A stretch of 64,000 nt of DNA from a virus (taxonomy: Duplodnaviria; Heunggongvirae; Uroviricota; Caudoviricetes): positions 13,231 to 77,230 of the IMG/VR virus record IMGVR_UViG_3300050026_000282; one strand, written 5' to 3'. This document shows positions 7,725-24,559 of this stretch, in pieces; the first letter of the stretch is position 1; the number at the start of each line of letters is the position of its first letter. The notes under the pieces were generated by a model. That model did not search any database. It was not told where the DNA came from and saw only the letters and a list, made by a program, of their open reading frames with translations. The translations under genes were made by a program, and so were the position numbers.

Positions 7725-7876
7725 GCGATGATGTCCCAAAAGTGAAGTCTGGTGAGGAACCCAGCGTCGAAGTTCGCTTCCGTGTCACTCCACTGGTCGT
7801 CATCCCACGATGACTCCCCACGGTCCAAGTCGTCTTGATCTTCGTCAGTCCAGTCGTCGGGCAAGTTACTCATCAT
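7721..7876 (-). CDS. small acidic protein (51 aa; about 17 Asp/Glu)
   Basis: Read by hand from the sequence: MMSNLPDDWTDEDQDDLDRGESSWDDDQWSDTEANFDAGFLTRLHFWDIIA. ATGA overlaps both ends. Confidence 0.35.
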   Translation of the reverse strand: MMSNLPDDWTDEDQDDLDRGESSWDDDQWSDTEANFDAGFLTRLHFWDIIA

Positions 7877-8412
7877 TTGCTCTCGAAGTTGAAGAAATAC
7901 CAGCGCTTCATCAGGTCGATCTCCAGGTCCCGGTCGATATGCTGGAGGTAGTCACACACTTCATCCCAAGTCGAGAAGATGGTCTCGTGCGGGATCATTC
8001 CGAAGAGCCAGCCAGGAGCACACTTCTTCCCCTGCTCGACGTGGACGATGATCGGTTTCTTCGACCGGTTGGCCGTGGTGATCTCTTCGATGGTGCCGAA
8101 CGCATAGACTTCCGTGTCGATGTTGACAATGAGGAAGTCGGTGATGTCAACCAGTCGGAGATCAACGCAGCGAATCTCTTTCACGGCCCGGCAGACTTCG
8201 TTGTAGTCGCCGCGCTCTTTCGCCGCGTTCAGCTTGGCCCGGCTCTCCGGGTCTTCTTTGGCCATCGTGGTCGGCTTGCAGACCGGGTCGGCCCACAAGA
8301 TGCCCAGCCCGGCCAGGCGGGTCTTGACGTAGTTGCGCCAGCCGGCCCCGCCGTCTGCCGCTCGGTCCATCGCTCCGCATAGATAGCAACGGGTGTTCTT
8401 CAGTCGGTTCAT
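7873..8412 (-). CDS. nucleoside 2-deoxyribosyltransferase-like protein, paralog of 4025..4471
   Basis: Shares the same skeleton as 4025..4471: CYLCGAMDRAADGGAGWRNYVKTRLAGLGILWADP and ...DFLIVNID...FGTIEEITTA..KPIIVHV. Confidence 0.45.
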   Translation of the reverse strand: MNRLKNTRCYLCGAMDRAADGGAGWRNYVKTRLAGLGILWADPVCKPTTMAKEDPESRAKLNAAKERGDYNEVCRAVKEIRCVDLRLVDITDFLIVNIDTEVYAFGTIEEITTANRSKKPIIVHVEQGKKCAPGWLFGMIPHETIFSTWDEVCDYLQHIDRDLEIDLMKRWYFFNFESK

Positions 8413-8588
8413 CGTTGCTCCAGTTCTCTTGCAAGCCAGTTTTCAATGGGCTCTTCGTAGCCGACCGGGTCTTGGTAGTGACGGCTCACCGTGCAGGACG
8501 CCCAGAGTCCGCGAGGGTGGGCGTACTCGATGCGAACAAATCCATCGGGGAGAAACTTAACAGTCCTTTCGCATTGCTTTAGGTACAC
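8409..8588 (-). CDS. possible small ORF (about 59 aa, GTG start)
   Basis: C-terminal part of track ORF 8409..8807, whose upstream part overlaps deoC. Stop is ATGA-coupled to 8412. Confidence 0.2.
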   Translation of the reverse strand: MYLKQCERTVKFLPDGFVRIEYAHPRGLWASCTVSRHYQDPVGYEEPIENWLARELEQR

Positions 8589-9229
8589 GGCAGTAACTCC
8601 AGGAATCTGCTCGACCCGAGTCGCGTGCAGCCCAAGTCGAGATACCGGGCCGCGTCCTCGTAGGTCTTGATCCCACCGCTGGCCTTCACTCCGCACTGGC
8701 CGTTGACAGTCTTGACCATTGTTTCGACAGCCTCGGGCGTTGCATCGCCGGCGAAGCCGGTTGATGTCTTGACGAAGTCCACTCCGAAGTCGATGCAGAT
8801 ATGGCACACTTCACTGATTTGCGTTCTGCTATAAAAGCTCGTTTCGAGAATGGCCTTGACCAGGATGCGGTCGCGGTGAGCCCCGGCCACGATCAGACCG
8901 AGTTCGTTGAACAAGGGCCGGCTGTCTCCGTCGAGGAACCGGCCATAGTTGAGGACCATGTCCAGTTCTTGTGCCCCGTCTTGGATCGCGGTAGCAGCTT
9001 CGTAGAGCTTCGCTTCCGGCGTCGTATTTCCGTTCGGGAAGCCAATGACGCAACTGACGTTGCGGAATAGGTTCGCCGCCAGACTCACGTACACTGGTGA
9101 GACACAGACTGACTTGATCTTGTGCGCGTTCGCCAAGGCACAGGCACGCGCCACATCATTGGCCGTGGCGGTCGGCTTGAGTACAGCGAGATCAAGGGCG
9201 GCTGCAATTTGCTCTTTACTATGACTCAT
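8579..9229 (-). CDS. deoC: deoxyribose-phosphate aldolase
   Basis: DLAVLKPTAT, GFPNG, KLYEAATAIQDGAQELDMV, catalytic-Lys region VKAILET...FVKTSTGF, VKASGGIKT, RLGSS. Confidence 0.85.
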   Translation of the reverse strand: MSHSKEQIAAALDLAVLKPTATANDVARACALANAHKIKSVCVSPVYVSLAANLFRNVSCVIGFPNGNTTPEAKLYEAATAIQDGAQELDMVLNYGRFLDGDSRPLFNELGLIVAGAHRDRILVKAILETSFYSRTQISEVCHICIDFGVDFVKTSTGFAGDATPEAVETMVKTVNGQCGVKASGGIKTYEDAARYLDLGCTRLGSSRFLELLPCT

Positions 9230-9377
9230 AACCTTGGAACCTTTTCTGTTTAGGTGCGTCTTCGGGATTCTCTTTCGCCATCCGGCGATGCAACCGGTTG
9301 AGTTGCTTCTTCACCCACTTGCGGAATCCGTTGTGACTCTTCCATGTTCCGTCAAGCTGACCTTTGTACGTCGCCAT
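9219..9377 (-). CDS. small basic protein (52 aa)
   Basis: Read by hand from the sequence: MATYKGQLDGTWKSHNGFRKWVKKQLNRLHRRMAKENPEDAPKQKRFQGYES; GGAG RBS; 11-nt overlap with deoC start. Confidence 0.3.
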   Translation of the reverse strand: MATYKGQLDGTWKSHNGFRKWVKKQLNRLHRRMAKENPEDAPKQKRFQGYES

Positions 9378-9669
9378 CCAGGTACTCCTCGGGCAGGAAG
9401 TAGTGCGGCTCTAATCCTGCGACGTTGTAAATGATGATCTCGTTGTGGAACTCCACGCCCTCGAAGATGTCCAAGGGCAGCGACATGATGCTCGTTATCT
9501 TGGCCCCGCAATCTCGCAGCCATCGCCAGCGCTTACTCTTCCGACGCTGGTTCAAACGGAAGCCCATCGGGACGAACAGGGCGACAGGAATGTCTTTGCC
9601 GAACAACTCGATGATGTGCTCCAGGAACACCTCGGGATATAATCGCTTGCCGGGCGCGCCGTTGAAGGG
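9352..9669 (-). pseudogene. C-terminal fragment of an N6-adenine methyltransferase gene split by the RIT element
   Basis: Minus strand from 9669 reads (P)PFNGAPGKRLYPEVFLEH... The upstream in-frame stop lies inside the element IR. Confidence 0.6.
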
Positions 9670-9698
9670 CGGGTTTTATGTGGCGCATTCAGTTATGT
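9670..9698. repeat. RIT terminal inverted repeat, left copy (reverse complement of ACATAACTGAATGCGCCACATAAAACCCG)
   Basis: Perfect 29/29 match to the reverse complement of 13035..13063. Confidence 0.8.
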
Positions 9699-9766
9699 GG
9701 CGTCCAGCACGAATCGCCAGCGATTTAAGGGATCGTTACTGTGCTGAACGCCACATAATGCGTGTC

Positions 9767-10825
9767 CTACAGGGTTCGCAGAAACTCCATGAGTCCTGGA
9801 TTCTTACGCCACGGCTTCTTCGGTGTGCCATCCTTGATTTCGCACTTTGCAAGCGCTTTGGCCTTCATTTCCAGATCGACCTCCGCATACACATTGGTCG
9901 TACTGAGACACACATGACCCAGCCAGGCTCGAATCGTGTTGATGTCCACGCGGGCTCGAAGCAAGTGGGTCGCGGTCGTGTGGCGAATCGTGTGGGGACT
10001 GACACGTTTCTTCGCCATCGACGGCAGTTTCGTTGCCACCTGAGCGGCGTACCGTTCGACCAGCGCATGAATCCCGAATCGCGTGAGCGGCTGCCCACGC
10101 CGGTTGAGGAAGACATGCTGGCATTCACCACGACGGTCAATGAGAGGTCGCAATTCGTCAACCGTCTTTGGCCACAGCGGACAACGGCGGGGCTTGTTTC
10201 CCTTTCCGTGGATGAGAACGGACGAGGAGTCGCGGTTGGATGCCACACCGAGGTCGAGGTCGCCGATCCGTACTTGGGCTACCTCGTCGGCCCGAGCACC
10301 AGTGTTGTACATAAACAGAAGTATCGCGTAGTCCCGACGGCCTTGGGCAGTGCGACAGTCGGGCGCTTTCCGCAACGCATCCATCTCGTCCTTTTCCAAG
10401 TACCCGACCAGCGGTCGCGCGACCTTCTTCGACGCGATGCTCTGAATCTGACCGACCCATTCCAGGTGTTCCGGGCCGTGCTGACCGATGAATCGCGCCA
10501 AGGAACGAATCGCAGCGAGACGCTGATTTCGTGTGGAAATCCCGCAACCGTGAGTTTTTTCCAAGTCTTGGAGAAAAGACCGGGTGCGGGCTGGCGATAC
10601 ATCCACCACAAGAAGTCGCTCGATCCGCCGGTGGGCGGCGCGAGCGACGAACGGCAGGAATTGTAGCAACGCATCCCTATAGCTCTTCTGCGTATTGGGG
10701 GCGAGATTCCGTTCGGCAACGAGGTGCTCCAACAAGAACCGGCGAACCCAGGGGCTAAGCAAATCGGTGTTAGGCATGACGGCGCTCCTTCCCGGCATAG
10801 CGCTCGAAGCGCTGGCTGGCCTCAC
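9767..10825 (-). CDS. ritC: tyrosine recombinase, RitC-like (third of trio)
   Basis: HTIRHTTATHLL (HxxR) and LGHVCLSTTNVYAEV (catalytic Tyr); upstream Arg in TGARADE. Probable real start MPNTDLL at about 10777; the track ORF overlaps ritB by 56 nt. Confidence 0.75.
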   Translation of the reverse strand: MRPASASSAMPGRSAVMPNTDLLSPWVRRFLLEHLVAERNLAPNTQKSYRDALLQFLPFVARAAHRRIERLLVVDVSPARTRSFLQDLEKTHGCGISTRNQRLAAIRSLARFIGQHGPEHLEWVGQIQSIASKKVARPLVGYLEKDEMDALRKAPDCRTAQGRRDYAILLFMYNTGARADEVAQVRIGDLDLGVASNRDSSSVLIHGKGNKPRRCPLWPKTVDELRPLIDRRGECQHVFLNRRGQPLTRFGIHALVERYAAQVATKLPSMAKKRVSPHTIRHTTATHLLRARVDINTIRAWLGHVCLSTTNVYAEVDLEMKAKALAKCEIKDGTPKKPWRKNPGLMEFLRTL

Positions 10826-11705
10826 GAAGAAGCTCGGGCGTCATGCTCAGGTACACCTGCGTGTCCCGCAAGTAGACGTGGCCGAGATAGACTGACAGGT
10901 GATGCAGGAGTCGCTGCACGTCGGCACCTTGCTGATACCAGGAGGTGAGGCGGTGAACGGCGAACGTATGTCGAAAGTCGTGAATTCGCGGTTGCTGGTG
11001 TGTGTCAGTTCGACGGATGCCCGCGTGATTGCACAAAGTTCGGAACTTCGGTTCGAGTCTCCAGTGCCGAACGGGACCGCCTCCCTGTGTCGTGAAGAAG
11101 GGGGCGTCGGCTGGCCGTCTCTTCGGCCGAGTGCGGTCGTACTGAACCAAGACCCGGTTCAGTTGCGGTCCCACGGGAACCAGTCGCGTCTTGCCGAACT
11201 TCGTGTTCCGAATCGTCAGCACGGACCCACGCAAATCCACGTCGGTGCGAGTGAGGTTTGTCGCCTCACAGATACGCAAGCCGGCTCCATAGTACAGCAG
11301 AATCATTGTGCGGATCGTCACCGGCTCCATTGTGCTGGTGCCCTGCGGATAGGACTCGATTACCCGGAGAAGACGGCGGATTTCTTCCTGTGTGTAGATG
11401 TAGGGAACGAAGACCGGCGGACGCTGCGGCATTACGGTCGGAAGAGGGGGCGTAGTGATGTGTCCTCGGCTTGCGGCATATCGGAAGAAGCACCGCAAGC
11501 AGCTCAATCTGGTGAACCACGTCTTGGTCACTGGTCTGGCTTTGCCAAGGAACGCATCCACATGCCGAACGCGAACATTGGCAATGCTGGCTCTCGGGCC
11601 GCGCGTGCGGCCGAAAGCCCGTAGAACTACCGCATCCGAGATGAAGGATGATCCAAGCGACCGTTGATAGGAGATGTACTGCTCGATCAGGCGTTGGAGG
11701 TTCAT
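10770..11705 (-). CDS. ritB: tyrosine recombinase, RitB-like
   Basis: HDFRHTFAVH and LGHVYLRDTQVYL; 311 aa; 4-nt overlap with ritA. Confidence 0.75.
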   Translation of the reverse strand: MNLQRLIEQYISYQRSLGSSFISDAVVLRAFGRTRGPRASIANVRVRHVDAFLGKARPVTKTWFTRLSCLRCFFRYAASRGHITTPPLPTVMPQRPPVFVPYIYTQEEIRRLLRVIESYPQGTSTMEPVTIRTMILLYYGAGLRICEATNLTRTDVDLRGSVLTIRNTKFGKTRLVPVGPQLNRVLVQYDRTRPKRRPADAPFFTTQGGGPVRHWRLEPKFRTLCNHAGIRRTDTHQQPRIHDFRHTFAVHRLTSWYQQGADVQRLLHHLSVYLGHVYLRDTQVYLSMTPELLREASQRFERYAGKERRHA

Positions 11706-12961
11706 AGGACACCTCCCATATCAAAGTCCGCCACCTGACGGAGGCCAACGAGATCGACCTTGGCGTAAATCCGCGTGCTGTCGGGGTCCATGTGCCCCAA
11801 TTGGTCGCCGATCTCCTTGAGTGACAGGCCGGCGGCCAGCAGTCGCGTCGCGCAGGCATGACGCAGGGCATGAGGCCCGTAGTGCGGAAGCGACACGTCC
11901 AGAGATCGCAGGCGTTTAGCAACCACTCCCCATATCGACGAGTTCACCGGCCGAAATGGAGCCCGCAGTGATAGAAACACTTCCCGATGCGATGATCGCG
12001 GTCGCACCTCTTGCAGGTAACGCAGGATGGCATCGCCGACAGATCGTATTAGCGGATAGGTGCGGACCCGTCCCGTCTTAGAAGACACAACGCGGATCAC
12101 CTCATGCTCCCAGTCGAAATCCTCCAGCCGCAGACGGCAGACCTCCCCGCGCCGGAGGCCGTAGATGGCCAGCAGCATCAGTATCGGGCGGTTACGGATG
12201 TTGGACGGCTTGTCGCCTTCAGTCATGGCAAGCAAACGCCGCACATCGTCCCACGACGGCCCCAGTGGCAACGACGCCTGCGAGAAGACCCGTGGATACC
12301 GAATCGACGCCGCCAATCCTTTACGGCACCAGCCCCTCGCTTCTGCATAACGAAAGAAAGCCCGAAGTGAGTCGGCACAACGTATAATCGTCCTTTTTGA
12401 ATAACCTTTTGGTATGAACAACTTCCGAAAGGCCATGTCAAGCCACTGAGGTGTGATCTTGTGCAGGGAATCCTCCTTGACGTGCAGTCGATTGAAGAAC
12501 TGCTTGATCCACCAACAATGATGGACAATGGTCACGGGCGACAGTTGCGCTTCATGCTCCATGTAGTCAGCAAACGCTTTGATCTTGTTCGCCCAAGGAG
12601 TCAACGGAGCAGGTCGCTCTTGCAGACGCCCGATGTACCGAAGCCACCGTATGGCAAGCGGGCAAAGAGAGCAATAGAAGCGGCGTTGGTTGGCTATCAT
12701 GCGTTCCACTTCGGCGAGAGTCAGAACCTTTCGAGGCCGAACGGCCGGTCCAATCGCGTTGGCAATCGCAAGCAGACGACTCGCGTTGACCAGCAAGGTA
12801 CTCCGGGCGTAGCCCTGATTCGCAAGATGCGTCAGGAAGGCAAGCCGCTCTTCCAGCATGGGGCCTTTGCGATAACGCGCGATTGTAATGGGACATTTAT
12901 ACAGTTGATCGAACATAGTCGAACCTCCGGGGAGAAAGGGAAAACAGAACATTCTCCCCAT
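11702..12961 (-). CDS. ritA: tyrosine recombinase, RitA-like (largest of trio)
   Basis: LRRGEVCRL, HALRHACATRLL, LGHMDPDSTRIYAKV; 419 aa with long N-terminal SAM-like/core-binding region. Confidence 0.75.
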   Translation of the reverse strand: MGRMFCFPFLPGGSTMFDQLYKCPITIARYRKGPMLEERLAFLTHLANQGYARSTLLVNASRLLAIANAIGPAVRPRKVLTLAEVERMIANQRRFYCSLCPLAIRWLRYIGRLQERPAPLTPWANKIKAFADYMEHEAQLSPVTIVHHCWWIKQFFNRLHVKEDSLHKITPQWLDMAFRKLFIPKGYSKRTIIRCADSLRAFFRYAEARGWCRKGLAASIRYPRVFSQASLPLGPSWDDVRRLLAMTEGDKPSNIRNRPILMLLAIYGLRRGEVCRLRLEDFDWEHEVIRVVSSKTGRVRTYPLIRSVGDAILRYLQEVRPRSSHREVFLSLRAPFRPVNSSIWGVVAKRLRSLDVSLPHYGPHALRHACATRLLAAGLSLKEIGDQLGHMDPDSTRIYAKVDLVGLRQVADFDMGGVL

Positions 12962-13034
12962 AGCGTAGCACCTAATTATGTGGTGCAGAAAACGGGCAAA
13001 ATGCTGAAATACGGCTGGAGGAACGAGCTAGACA

Positions 13035-13063
13035 ACATAACTGAATGCGCCACATAAAACCCG
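13035..13063. repeat. RIT terminal inverted repeat, right copy ACATAACTGAATGCGCCACATAAAACCCG
   Basis: Perfect inverted copy of 9670..9698. Confidence 0.8.
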
Positions 13064-13086
13064 TTATGTGGTCCACCACATAACGG
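13061..13086. repeat. 26-bp palindrome CCGTTATGTGGTCCACCACATAACGG at the RIT right junction
   Basis: Two inverted (C)CACATAA half-sites; same 9-mer family as the subterminal GCCACATAA repeats. Confidence 0.6.
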
Positions 13087-13422
13087 GTTGCATAGGACAA
13101 GGTCTGGGCGAGGTAAGTAATTCCACACGATACTCTCGAACTTGCCACGAACGAACTCACTGAGTTTGTTCTTGTAACCACGCTCACGTTGCACTACATC
13201 ACAACCGAACACGGCGCATCCGGCATCCCACCACGGGTCGGTGAGTCTTTGGGTCCCGATTGCAGGATCAAGGACGACCTTGTCGAAGCAGACGCCCCGG
13301 CAGTGCATCGCTGGCCAGAGGATGTCGAACAGGAATCGTGCTACACCAACGGGAGTAAACACGGTGCTGTTCTTTCGGTTGTTGTGGTAGTCGTTGCGAA
13401 CGACGGTTAAAGGACTGGCCAT
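13084..13422 (-). pseudogene. N-terminal fragment of the split N6-adenine methyltransferase (gamma-class, TaqI/Eco57I-like)
   Basis: MASPLTVV...VFTPVGVARFLFDILWP...VLDPAIGTQRLTD...AGCAVFGCDV...DLVLCN. The track ORF then reads through the palindrome and IR (CGGPHNGFYVAHSVM) to a stop at 12976. Confidence 0.6.
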
Positions 13423-24091: not shown

Positions 24092-24559
24092 TTAGACCTT
24101 ATAGGACCTGATCCGTGACGGCTGGAGCCGGGACTTGTCGAAGACGACAATCGCTATTGCTTGCACCAGGCCGCATTTCGCGTCACCAAACTTCGGACGA
24201 CCGTGAAGGAAACGAATCTCAGCGGCTTTCATGCAGTAGGTATGCCACCAGTTCGTGTTCGTATGGGCCGGGACGAGCATCACCACGACGCAGTCCGACT
24301 CAAACGCCTTCTGCACCCAACGCCTCAAACGAGCCTTATCCGAGTTGAAGGGAGGGTTGAGCCAGCAAACACCTTTCCACTCTTGCTGTAAGGCATCTTC
24401 CTCGGCCGTGTAGTAAACCGGACACTTAGCGTTGGCTGAGTCAGCAGCCAAGTCGATGGTGAAGTGAAACTCCTCATTCAGCCTGTTGAACAGGGATTGA
24501 GGAGTAGACCATGACTGGCTGCGTGACTCGAACCTCGGCTGTCTCTTGGGCAACAACAT
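24092..24559 (-). CDS. DNA N6-adenine methyltransferase, phage Dam-like
   Basis: WSTPQSLFNRLNEEFHFTIDLAA ... CWLNPPFN, the phage Dam-like signature (family assignment from memory) including NPPF. Confidence 0.75.
   Translation of the reverse strand: MLLPKRQPRFESRSQSWSTPQSLFNRLNEEFHFTIDLAADSANAKCPVYYTAEEDALQQEWKGVCWLNPPFNSDKARLRRWVQKAFESDCVVVMLVPAHTNTNWWHTYCMKAAEIRFLHGRPKFGDAKCGLVQAIAIVVFDKSRLQPSRIRSYKV

Follow-up and report, generated by a model that had tools for sequence, protein, structure and literature searches.

A recombinase-in-trio element in the motif IV codons of a tailed-phage DNA methyltransferase gene

What has a transposon of the recombinase-in-trio (RIT) type entered in a tailed-phage genome, and how did it come to stand at that position? 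These questions are raised by positions 9670-13083 of the stretch of DNA analysed here, called the window, which comprises 64,000 nt of a Caudoviricetes genome (IMG/VR record IMGVR_UViG_3300050026_000282, positions 13,231 to 77,230). The RIT element at this locus is complete, 3,414 bp long and on the minus strand. It lies between the Asn-Pro and Pro-Phe codons (NP/PF, with the slash at the point of insertion) of motif IV of an N6-adenine DNA methyltransferase gene, and it probably arrived there, as an intact RIT, by site-specific recombination of the tyrosine-recombinase kind. RIT elements have been known since 2009 and were reportedly described by Van Houdt (2009, 2012) and Ricker (2013).

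The element and the gene it interrupts

The original prediction had set the element in the intergenic space between deoC and a gene for an HExxH protein. Instead, it was found inside a DNA methyltransferase gene, since the flanking minus-strand open reading frames (ORFs) called at 12976-13422 and 9352-9630 are the two halves of one gene. The parts of the locus are as follows.

9670-13083, minus strand: the whole RIT insertion; its exact deletion leaves an uninterrupted 218-aa ORF that is gap-free against full-length homologues
13084-13422, minus strand: 5′ part of the methyltransferase gene, residues 1-113 with ...DLVLCNP at the end; the ORF as called, 12976-13422, continues into the element
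9352-9669, minus strand: 3′ part of the methyltransferase gene, starting PFNGAPGKRLYPEVFLEH... and running to the stop codon

Deletion of 9670-13083 joined ...DLVLCNP to PFNGAPGKRLYPEVFLEH... and restored ...LCNPPFNG... in the 218-aa ORF, whereas a deletion confined to the sequence within the outer edges of the 29-bp inverted repeat broke the frame. The exact boundaries are regarded as established; because a 6-mer is shared by the two junctions, they can equally be written as 9676-13089. The reconstructed empty site reads ...CTATGCAACCCGCCCTTCAACGG..., and the NPPF-coding target within it is TGCAACCCGCCCTTCAACGG. The rebuilt protein matched phrog_799, 'DNA methyltransferase' (E = 2e-10), and had 388 homologues, most of them 196-223 aa long and aligned at 95-97% coverage with identities up to 73%. 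No gap occurred across the junction, and residues C111, N112, P114, N116 and G117 were invariant. The NPPF sequence corresponds to motif IV, which is catalytic in N6-adenine methyltransferases. The identity of the disrupted gene is likewise established, and the insertion splits it and, to judge from the sequence, inactivates it. The same truncated methyltransferase product of 148 aa is present in a public protein collection as P0169 and stands on a 77-kb Joint Genome Institute contig from which the window probably derives. Both halves are undecayed, and excision would be scarless.

Could the join between RIT and phage DNA be an artefact of assembly? Contigs with RITs often end inside the element (L009, L010, L024 and L032 among the related stretches, which are cited by L numbers), and L014 and L015 resemble fold-back joins. 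Such an artefact is nevertheless barely credible. A single contig contains both junctions of the window element, the junctions share a 6-mer, and a precise deletion restores the reading frame; an independent Logan assembly (SRR35914902, L024) has the identical N-side junction, matching the window at 100% identity as far as the RIT end and on into it; and the same type of junction recurred across many samples.

Three consecutive minus-strand ORFs were called in the element, at 11702-12961, 10770-11705 and 9767-10825. The genes, with their most likely starts, are the following.

11702-12916, minus strand: ritA, 404 aa; Phage_integrase and SAM-like domain by Pfam; best matches are the RitA proteins of reference trios
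10770-11705, minus strand: ritB, 311 aa; 4-nt ATGA overlap with ritA; Pfam and reference-trio match
9767-10777, minus strand: ritC, 336 aa; 8-nt overlap ATGCCTAA with ritB

The genes had been predicted as overlapping tyrosine recombinase genes on one strand, which the ORFs and the Pfam matches bore out, with products of 419, 311 and 352 aa, of which only the second size was retained. The most likely start of ritA is ATG 12916, which has a GGAGG Shine-Dalgarno sequence 7 nt upstream and homologues of 398-409 aa; the alternative upstream ATG 12961 gives 419 aa. For ritC, ATG 10777 is the most likely start, and the alternative GTG 10825 gives 352 aa. All three proteins matched Pfam Phage_integrase (E 2e-19 to 2e-29), and SAM-like N-terminal domains were matched in two of them. 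The R, K, HxxR, H and Y columns were invariant in the alignment of RitA, RitB and RitC, so that the six catalytic residues are kept, including the HxxR box and catalytic Tyr already read in each by the original prediction. RitC aligned to XerD (1a0p) over 288 residues with matching catalytic-residue motifs.

In BLASTP comparisons with reference trios, the three proteins scored 134-374 bits against the protein at the same position and at most 60 bits across positions. The trios were those of pHG1, P. phymatum pBPHY02, a P. frederiksbergensis plasmid and a Mesorhizobium plasmid, taken from the RIT literature or from tblastn; assignment to subfamilies is by positional best match only, as Pfam and NCBIfam hold no RIT-specific models. 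The ritA-ritB-ritC assignment is thereby supported, and the identity of the element is taken as established. The alternative named with the original prediction, that the recombinases belong with XerC/XerD, did not hold, since the scores against the XerC/XerD NCBIfam equivalogs were 99-167 bits (best 128, 102 and 167), far below the cut-offs of 330-335. The RIT proteins resemble XerC/XerD in their simple tyrosine-recombinase fold and catalytic hexad, whereas the window RIT is a mobile trio with its own inverted ends and not a set of chromosomal housekeeping genes acting at dif.

Two sequential core-binding domains are a hallmark of RitA (Smyshlyaev 2021, PMC8138268). An AlphaFold 2 model of the window RitA, poor overall (predicted template modelling score 0.37), placed helical bundles at residues 1-100 (predicted local distance difference test 72-91) and 107-193 ahead of the catalytic domain. 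Pfam matched only the second bundle, and an hhalign comparison of domain 1 with domain 2 gave a weak match (50% probability, 27 columns). RitC runs about 13-20 residues past RitA and RitB after the catalytic Tyr, ending in PGLMEFLRTL; the DNA for this tail was conserved in all relatives compared, and an extra conserved C-terminal helix is a RIT hallmark. An exact-protein look-up of the window RitA returned no record. Between the element ends, no fourth ORF was found beside the three recombinase genes of ordinary size.

RITs have been defined by adjacent tyrosine recombinase genes on the same strand with overlaps of 4-8 bp (PMC3414803, PMC2864759), in a unit of about 3.5 kb with a 28-34-bp inverted repeat and an overlapping palindrome (PMC3414803, PMC10214605). 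The window element is a canonical, apparently autonomous RIT and a member of this known class. Opposite the rit genes, on the plus strand, stand long reading frames of up to 411 aa (9431-10666, 10899-11624 and 12461-13057), and comparable antisense frames were chosen by gene callers in L009. They look like a consequence of the high GC content and not like genes.

Recurrent insertion at the NP/PF codons

The surroundings of the element agree with the phage-type genome of the original prediction. The window encodes a large terminase, portal, major head protein, tape measure, DNA polymerase, primase, helicase and ATP-dependent ligase. No tRNA was found in the window, and a megablast search with 25 kb of it against GenBank phages gave no match. 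From named homologues and genome matches, the hosts may be Planctomycetota and in some cases Acidobacteriota, which is a weak indication. The serine recombinase claimed for the right edge (63435 to beyond 64000, minus strand) is unconfirmed, as the visible 187 aa had no match in Pfam, PHROG or PDB.

Contigs of 59-114 kb in IMG/VR carry the same methylase at 54-66% protein identity. In two of them (L017 and L022), ligase, HExxH ORF, methylase and deoC follow one another as in the window; the methylase is uninterrupted there, and the empty site reads TGCAAYCCGCCCTTYAAC. Related phages with an uninterrupted locus, for which the original prediction had suggested a search, are thus established, and they indicate that the inverted repeats delimit a discrete insertion.

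Relatives of the element are numerous. At E < 1e-30, over 5,000 homologues of RitA were found, with 95% identity for the best one and 65-78% for many, and six IMG/VR contigs encode a RitA of 72-73% identity. An exact search with the inverted repeat found no match in IMG/VR. A degenerate inverted-repeat pattern retrieved 15 stretches from IMG/VR, 17 from species-representative genomes and more than 120 from Joint Genome Institute metagenomes; this pattern samples one RIT family, and all relatives are metagenome assemblies. Several of the contigs retrieved belong to the phage family of the window, with identities of 59-61% for the large terminase, 58-59% for DNA polymerase, 65% for ligase and 50% for the major head protein, so that RITs recur in that phage lineage. 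Full trios were also present in two UNVERIFIED GenBank 'phage' records.

Seven distinct elements, including that of the window, shared 92-98% nucleotide identity. Four of the seven (window, L032, L033 and L076) were inserted at NP/PF of the same methylase family, beside the same neighbouring genes, and a fifth (L007, ritA 95%) stood at NP/PFN in a gene of a different family (Pfam N6_Mtase, E = 1.5e-17). Methylase loci of either kind have 12 nt between CCACA of the terminal site c′ (described below) and TTCAAC of the target. Recurrence at these codons is established. The remaining two elements, L057 and L035, were considered as methylase insertions and rejected, the flanks being those of a collagen-repeat, tail-fibre-like protein and of an unrelated protein.

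A single ancient insertion into the methylase gene, inherited vertically, would account for the four elements in one methylase family with the same neighbour genes. The RIT of L032 is 95% identical to that of the window, whereas the flanking methylase and deoC are only 67-70% identical; at third codon positions, the identity was 0.91 for ritC and 0.48 and 0.47 for the two flanks, which are saturated. Across the comparison, third-position identity of the RITs was 0.91-0.98 at 92-98% overall identity, against 0.47-0.48 in the flanks. A near-identical RIT in saturated flanks excludes one inherited ancient insertion, other phage relatives have an intact gene, and in L007 these codons of an unrelated N6_Mtase-family gene hold the same element. 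Vertical inheritance is therefore very improbable and already largely refuted. The comparisons indicate that insertion has been repeated and site-specific among phage backbones.

Ends of the element and a predicted crossover

The 29-nt inverted repeat at 9670-9698 and 13035-13063 was confirmed as perfect (100% complementary). All seven occurrences of the octamer TTATGTGG/CCACATAA in the 64-kb window fall within the ends of the element, which argues that the inverted repeat is not due to chance. The end at 13083 had been given correctly, but 20 bp beyond the inverted repeat had been left unexplained; the insertion extends across these 20 bp, and they form a palindromic pair of octamers (a/b). 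The sites at the two ends are listed here.

9670-9698: ritC-side terminal inverted repeat; O3 at 9670-9675, c′ at 9676-9683, a 9-nt spacer, d′ at 9693-9700
9670-9675, minus strand: 6-mer O3, AACCCG on the minus strand
13035-13063: ritA-side terminal inverted repeat; d at 13033-13040, a 9-nt spacer, c at 13050-13057, O2′ at 13058-13063
13064-13083: palindromic site pair a/b, TTATGTGG TCCA CCACATAA; outside the inverted repeat, inside the insertion
13084-13089, minus strand: target 6-mer O1, AACCCG, encoding Asn-Pro of NPPF; putative crossover (overlap) region
12976-12983: subterminal site e, TTATGTGG; 80 nt inside the ritA-side end
9741-9758: subterminal site e′, CCACATAA at 9751-9758; forms a stem with 9693-9710

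Read from ritA to ritC, the order is O1, a, 4 nt, b, O2′ (the reverse complement of O1), c, 9 nt, d, about 45 nt and e, followed by ritABC, e′, d′, 9 nt, c′ and O3. AACCCG is thus repeated at 9670-9675 and inverted at 13058-13063, and a palindrome at 13058-13089 overlaps the ritA-side inverted repeat. The 8-4-8-6-8-9-8 geometry was common to the RITs of proteobacterial plasmids (L004 and L006) and to L008, L010 and L011, despite the fact that the L004 and L006 proteins are only 38-56% identical to those of the window. Directly after the ritC stop, an 18-nt inverted repeat (9693-9710/9741-9758, 94% complementary, 30-nt loop) joins d′ and e′; no such stem exists on the ritA side, and this one could be a terminator or a paired binding site.

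Joining the two ends produces c′-6 bp-a and b-6 bp-c, two adjacent mirror-image sites with 8-bp inverted arms and a 6-bp spacer. Inverted 8-bp arms around a 6-bp spacer are the classic layout of a tyrosine-recombinase core site. Among the elements found by the inverted-repeat pattern, the a/b palindrome was always on the N-terminal side of the split ORF, and it abutted either the ritA or the ritC end (about 18 and 7 cases, respectively, in a crude count with simple regular expressions). A fixed ritA-side feature was accordingly rejected, as the palindrome adjoins the ritC end in L009, L016 and L057. Both orientations of the element body were observed in the comparisons of the window with L057 and of L010 with L009. 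A simple target duplication that leaves three identical 6-mers was rejected as well, one of the three being inverted and the 6-mers being non-identical in L057, L076, L050, L091 and L128. In L057 and L076, the AACCCG of the target stands upstream, and AACAGT is found both at the inner position and downstream. They follow in this the rule reported for the SEs and Tn554, in which attL retains the 6 bp of the target and attR receives a 6-bp footprint brought by the element (PMC10214605).

An a/b-type palindrome, TTATGTGGTCCACCACATAA, was also seen about 2.8 kb past the ritC end in L012 (6680-6699) and L013 (11985-12004), where it does not abut the element and has a terminator-like hairpin just upstream. 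The displacement could stem from cargo or from a secondary rearrangement, or the palindrome could be a solo site.

A domesticated or regulatory module was also considered, either as a reversible methylase switch, an invertible segment or the integration module of the phage itself. Both gene halves are undecayed and excision would leave no scar, the body stands in both orientations against the same flank (L009 and L010, window and L057), and RITs recur in the phage family of the window. A recent insertion explains the intact halves equally well, most relatives have no RIT at the methylase locus, the same type of element disrupts many unrelated genes, and there is no link to a bacterial attachment site. 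The features of a phage integration module were not found here either, with three recombinases, an interrupted methylase and the locus absent from this place in related phages. Domestication is quite unlikely, and site-specific insertion of a mobile RIT remains the preferred explanation.

If the RIT is mobile in this manner, it would excise as a circle in which the end-to-end junction makes a core-type site, c′(CCACATAA)-6 bp-a(TTATGTGG), directly adjoined by the second, mirror-image core b-6 bp-c; the predicted circle junction reads ...GCGCCACATAAAACCCGTTATGTGGTCCACCACATAA.... Strand exchange would occur across the 6-bp overlap (AACCCG here) with a target that holds the same or a similar 6-mer. 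Recombination of attL with attR (flank-AACCCG-a with c′-AACCCG-flank) would yield TGCAACCCGCCCTTC and a circle with c′-AACCCG-a beside b-CGGGTT-c. Integration could use either of the mirror-image cores, which would always leave a/b on the same (5′) side of the target with the rit genes in either orientation; this scheme matches the arrangement observed. Beyond the 6-mer, the sublineage of the window would prefer AAYCCN/CCNTTCAAY, which encodes NPPFN, and a preference for NPPFN-coding DNA would let the element re-insert in diverged methylase genes of different phages in a homing-like manner. We infer the circular intermediate, the position of the crossover, what each site and each of the three proteins does, and any present activity; the support for mobility is comparative, from intact loci of related phages and near-identical copies in diverged backbones.

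Several observations weigh against this explanation. The three 6-mers differ among themselves in several relatives, so strict homology of the overlap would not be required and heterology would be tolerated; the crossover model is to that extent incomplete, and specificity must also come from flanking bases. The model explains neither what the a/b pair does nor why three recombinases are needed. Repeats can give rise to chimeric contigs in metagenome assemblies, as perhaps in L014 and L015. The exact 26-mer of the empty site was not found in IMG/VR, nor was a near-identical RIT-free phage, and the closest intact loci are only 54-66% identical at the protein level. Two of the seven close elements (L035 and L057) are in non-methylase genes whose visible side shares only AACCCG with the methylase target, and the target preference is thus not absolute. 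A second small methyltransferase gene in the window (24092-24559, minus strand; phrog_111, E = 9e-47; containing ...WLNPPFNS...) is intact, and its 24344-24358 (AACCCTCCCTTCAAC) is 14/15 identical to the occupied target and yet free of a RIT.

Target classes and known systems

In all elements found by the inverted-repeat pattern, the 6-mer beside the outer site was in frame and corresponded to two codons of the split ORF. Target classes were counted on 80 dereplicated downstream flanks. Eight began with (D/N)PP(Y/F/L), compared with a background of 3.5e-5 per position (P = 6e-26) and with 1.7% of RAYCCS sites (P = 3e-10). Three showed DPxCG(S/T)G, methylase motif I. The class (E/D)(L/I)K comprised 23 flanks, most from YhcG-type PD-(D/E)xK nucleases and a few from the E(I/L)/KLDGYR of ATP-dependent DNA ligases (KxDG motif). 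One phage gene, ...PLVER/CADVIAQN, was the target in another 8, and the remaining flanks numbered 38. Pfam matches on the flanks or rebuilt genes were N6_Mtase, N6_N4_Mtase, MethyltransfD12, Eco57I/MmeI, YhcG_C and DNA_ligase_A_M.

A further example is L008 (identical to L152), a 187,850-bp contig from the bin of a Planctomycetia metagenome-assembled genome. Its RIT at 7834-11238, with a RitA 77% identical to that of the window, has the 6-mer GGACGG at all three positions and splits an ORF between ...APLW and TDLRTF...; removal restored an ORF with LSLCSGGAGLDLG, GYPCQPFSVAGKR and ENV. By eye, these motifs look like those of a C5-cytosine DNA methyltransferase.

As read from these flanks, insertions concentrate on catalytic-motif codons across the family that shares the inverted repeat. 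We lean slightly towards a wider interpretation, that the RITs of the family are homing-type transposons. Their sublineages would recognise the DNA that encodes catalytic motifs of DNA-acting enzymes, namely methyltransferase motifs IV ((D/N)PP(Y/F)) and I (DPxCGxG), the (E/D)LK of the YhcG PD-(D/E)xK nucleases and the KxDG of ligases. They would insert in a fixed orientation with a 6-bp overlap and spread among phages and chromosomes of Planctomycetota and Acidobacteriota, knocking out methylases of phages and hosts.

The same flanks bear on a transposon of low specificity that needs only the 6-mer, with the apparent pile-up in certain genes left by purifying selection against insertions in essential genes of phage or host. 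The non-methylase insertions of L035 and L057, with AACCCG alone in common, are compatible with it, as are the 6-mers that can differ within one element and the probably dispensable, accessory nature of the targeted genes. Selection for dispensable genes cannot, however, put insertions at the same two codons in six unrelated Pfam families, whereas recognition of motif-coding DNA explains this. The enrichment over all RAYCCS sites (P = 3e-10) and the constant orientation relative to the reading frame of the target also speak against low specificity, which we consider unlikely.

Invasion of catalytic-motif DNA has precedents. Homing endonuclease genes, inteins and group I and II introns repeatedly invade DNA that encodes conserved catalytic motifs, which guarantees targets in diverged genomes. 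The likeness of the window RIT to these homing elements is a functional analogy only and consists in recurrent invasion of catalytic-motif-coding DNA; it differs in using tyrosine recombination instead of double-strand-break repair or retrohoming, and in that there is no splicing and the host gene is knocked out.

Like the window element, the RITs of Cupriavidus metallidurans CH34, C. necator pHG1 and other proteobacteria have the order ritA-ritB-ritC with ATGA and 8-nt overlaps, three recombinase subfamilies, a length of about 3.4-3.5 kb and a 28-29-bp inverted repeat with an overlapping palindrome, and they insert into and inactivate genes (radC, tnpA). Unlike them, the window RIT is in a tailed-phage genome of a lineage that may be associated with Planctomycetota and not in a proteobacterial chromosome or plasmid, its proteins are only 32-56% identical to those of the proteobacterial trios, and its target, the NP/PF codons of a methylase, is defined to the nucleotide. 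Published RITs interrupt radC (twice) and transposase genes, their mobility being unproven (PMC3414803, PMC2864759, PMC10214605), and in a 2023 comparison table, the target specificity, empty sites and movement of RITs are all entered as untested (PMC10214605).

The Tn554, SE and GInt elements, compared by description, are similar to the window RIT as transposons with several tyrosine recombinases, no true target duplication and a travelling 6-bp footprint (PMC10214605). They have two recombinases, one of them very large, together with TnpC/Srap, GinD and cargo (PMC10214605), whereas the window RIT has three of ordinary size, no fourth gene and no cargo. Tyroviruses (PMC9703825) were rejected as a parallel to the trio, their three tyrosine recombinase genes being dispersed.

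Relative to the RIT literature, the recurrent residence in tailed phages, the nucleotide-exact target and empty sites and the preference for catalytic motifs appear to be new; Ricker et al. (2013) may already describe some of this. If the homing-type interpretation is true, it would provide the first target specificity and the first attB/attL/attR sites for a RIT, and phages would be a regular vehicle of these elements. The locus and its relatives offer computational attB/attL/attR sets, with filled and empty sites at single-nucleotide resolution. The locus also supplies a candidate 6-bp crossover, a map of eight putative recombinase-binding octamers and a predicted NPPF-coding target, which together with the relatives would be enough for the design of a transposition assay. 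The comparisons show repeated colonisation of the phage lineage by RITs, with phage DNA methylases as a preferred casualty. Phage DNA methylases are usually anti-restriction genes, and the loss of one to a RIT could affect phage host range.

Some minor observations were made among the relatives. In L130 (from about 2356 onward), a RIT lies inside another tyrosine recombinase gene, at ...EV/LYSTGLRRDEALGL in the region of the box I arginine. In L050, L056 and L102, all with YhcG targets, the inverted-repeat matches were about 6.1 kb apart, compared with 3.4 kb in the window; these could be larger elements with cargo or nested copies. The RITs of L014 and L015 are flanked by inverted duplications of phage structural genes, of 2 kb and 90% identity in L014 (1280-3317 against 8554-6519) and of about 2.7 kb and 65-73% identity in L015 (3148-5884 against 11939-9201). 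Such duplications could have arisen in assembly, as fold-back joins where an element is invertible or shared, or they could be real paralogous cassettes in inverted orientation.

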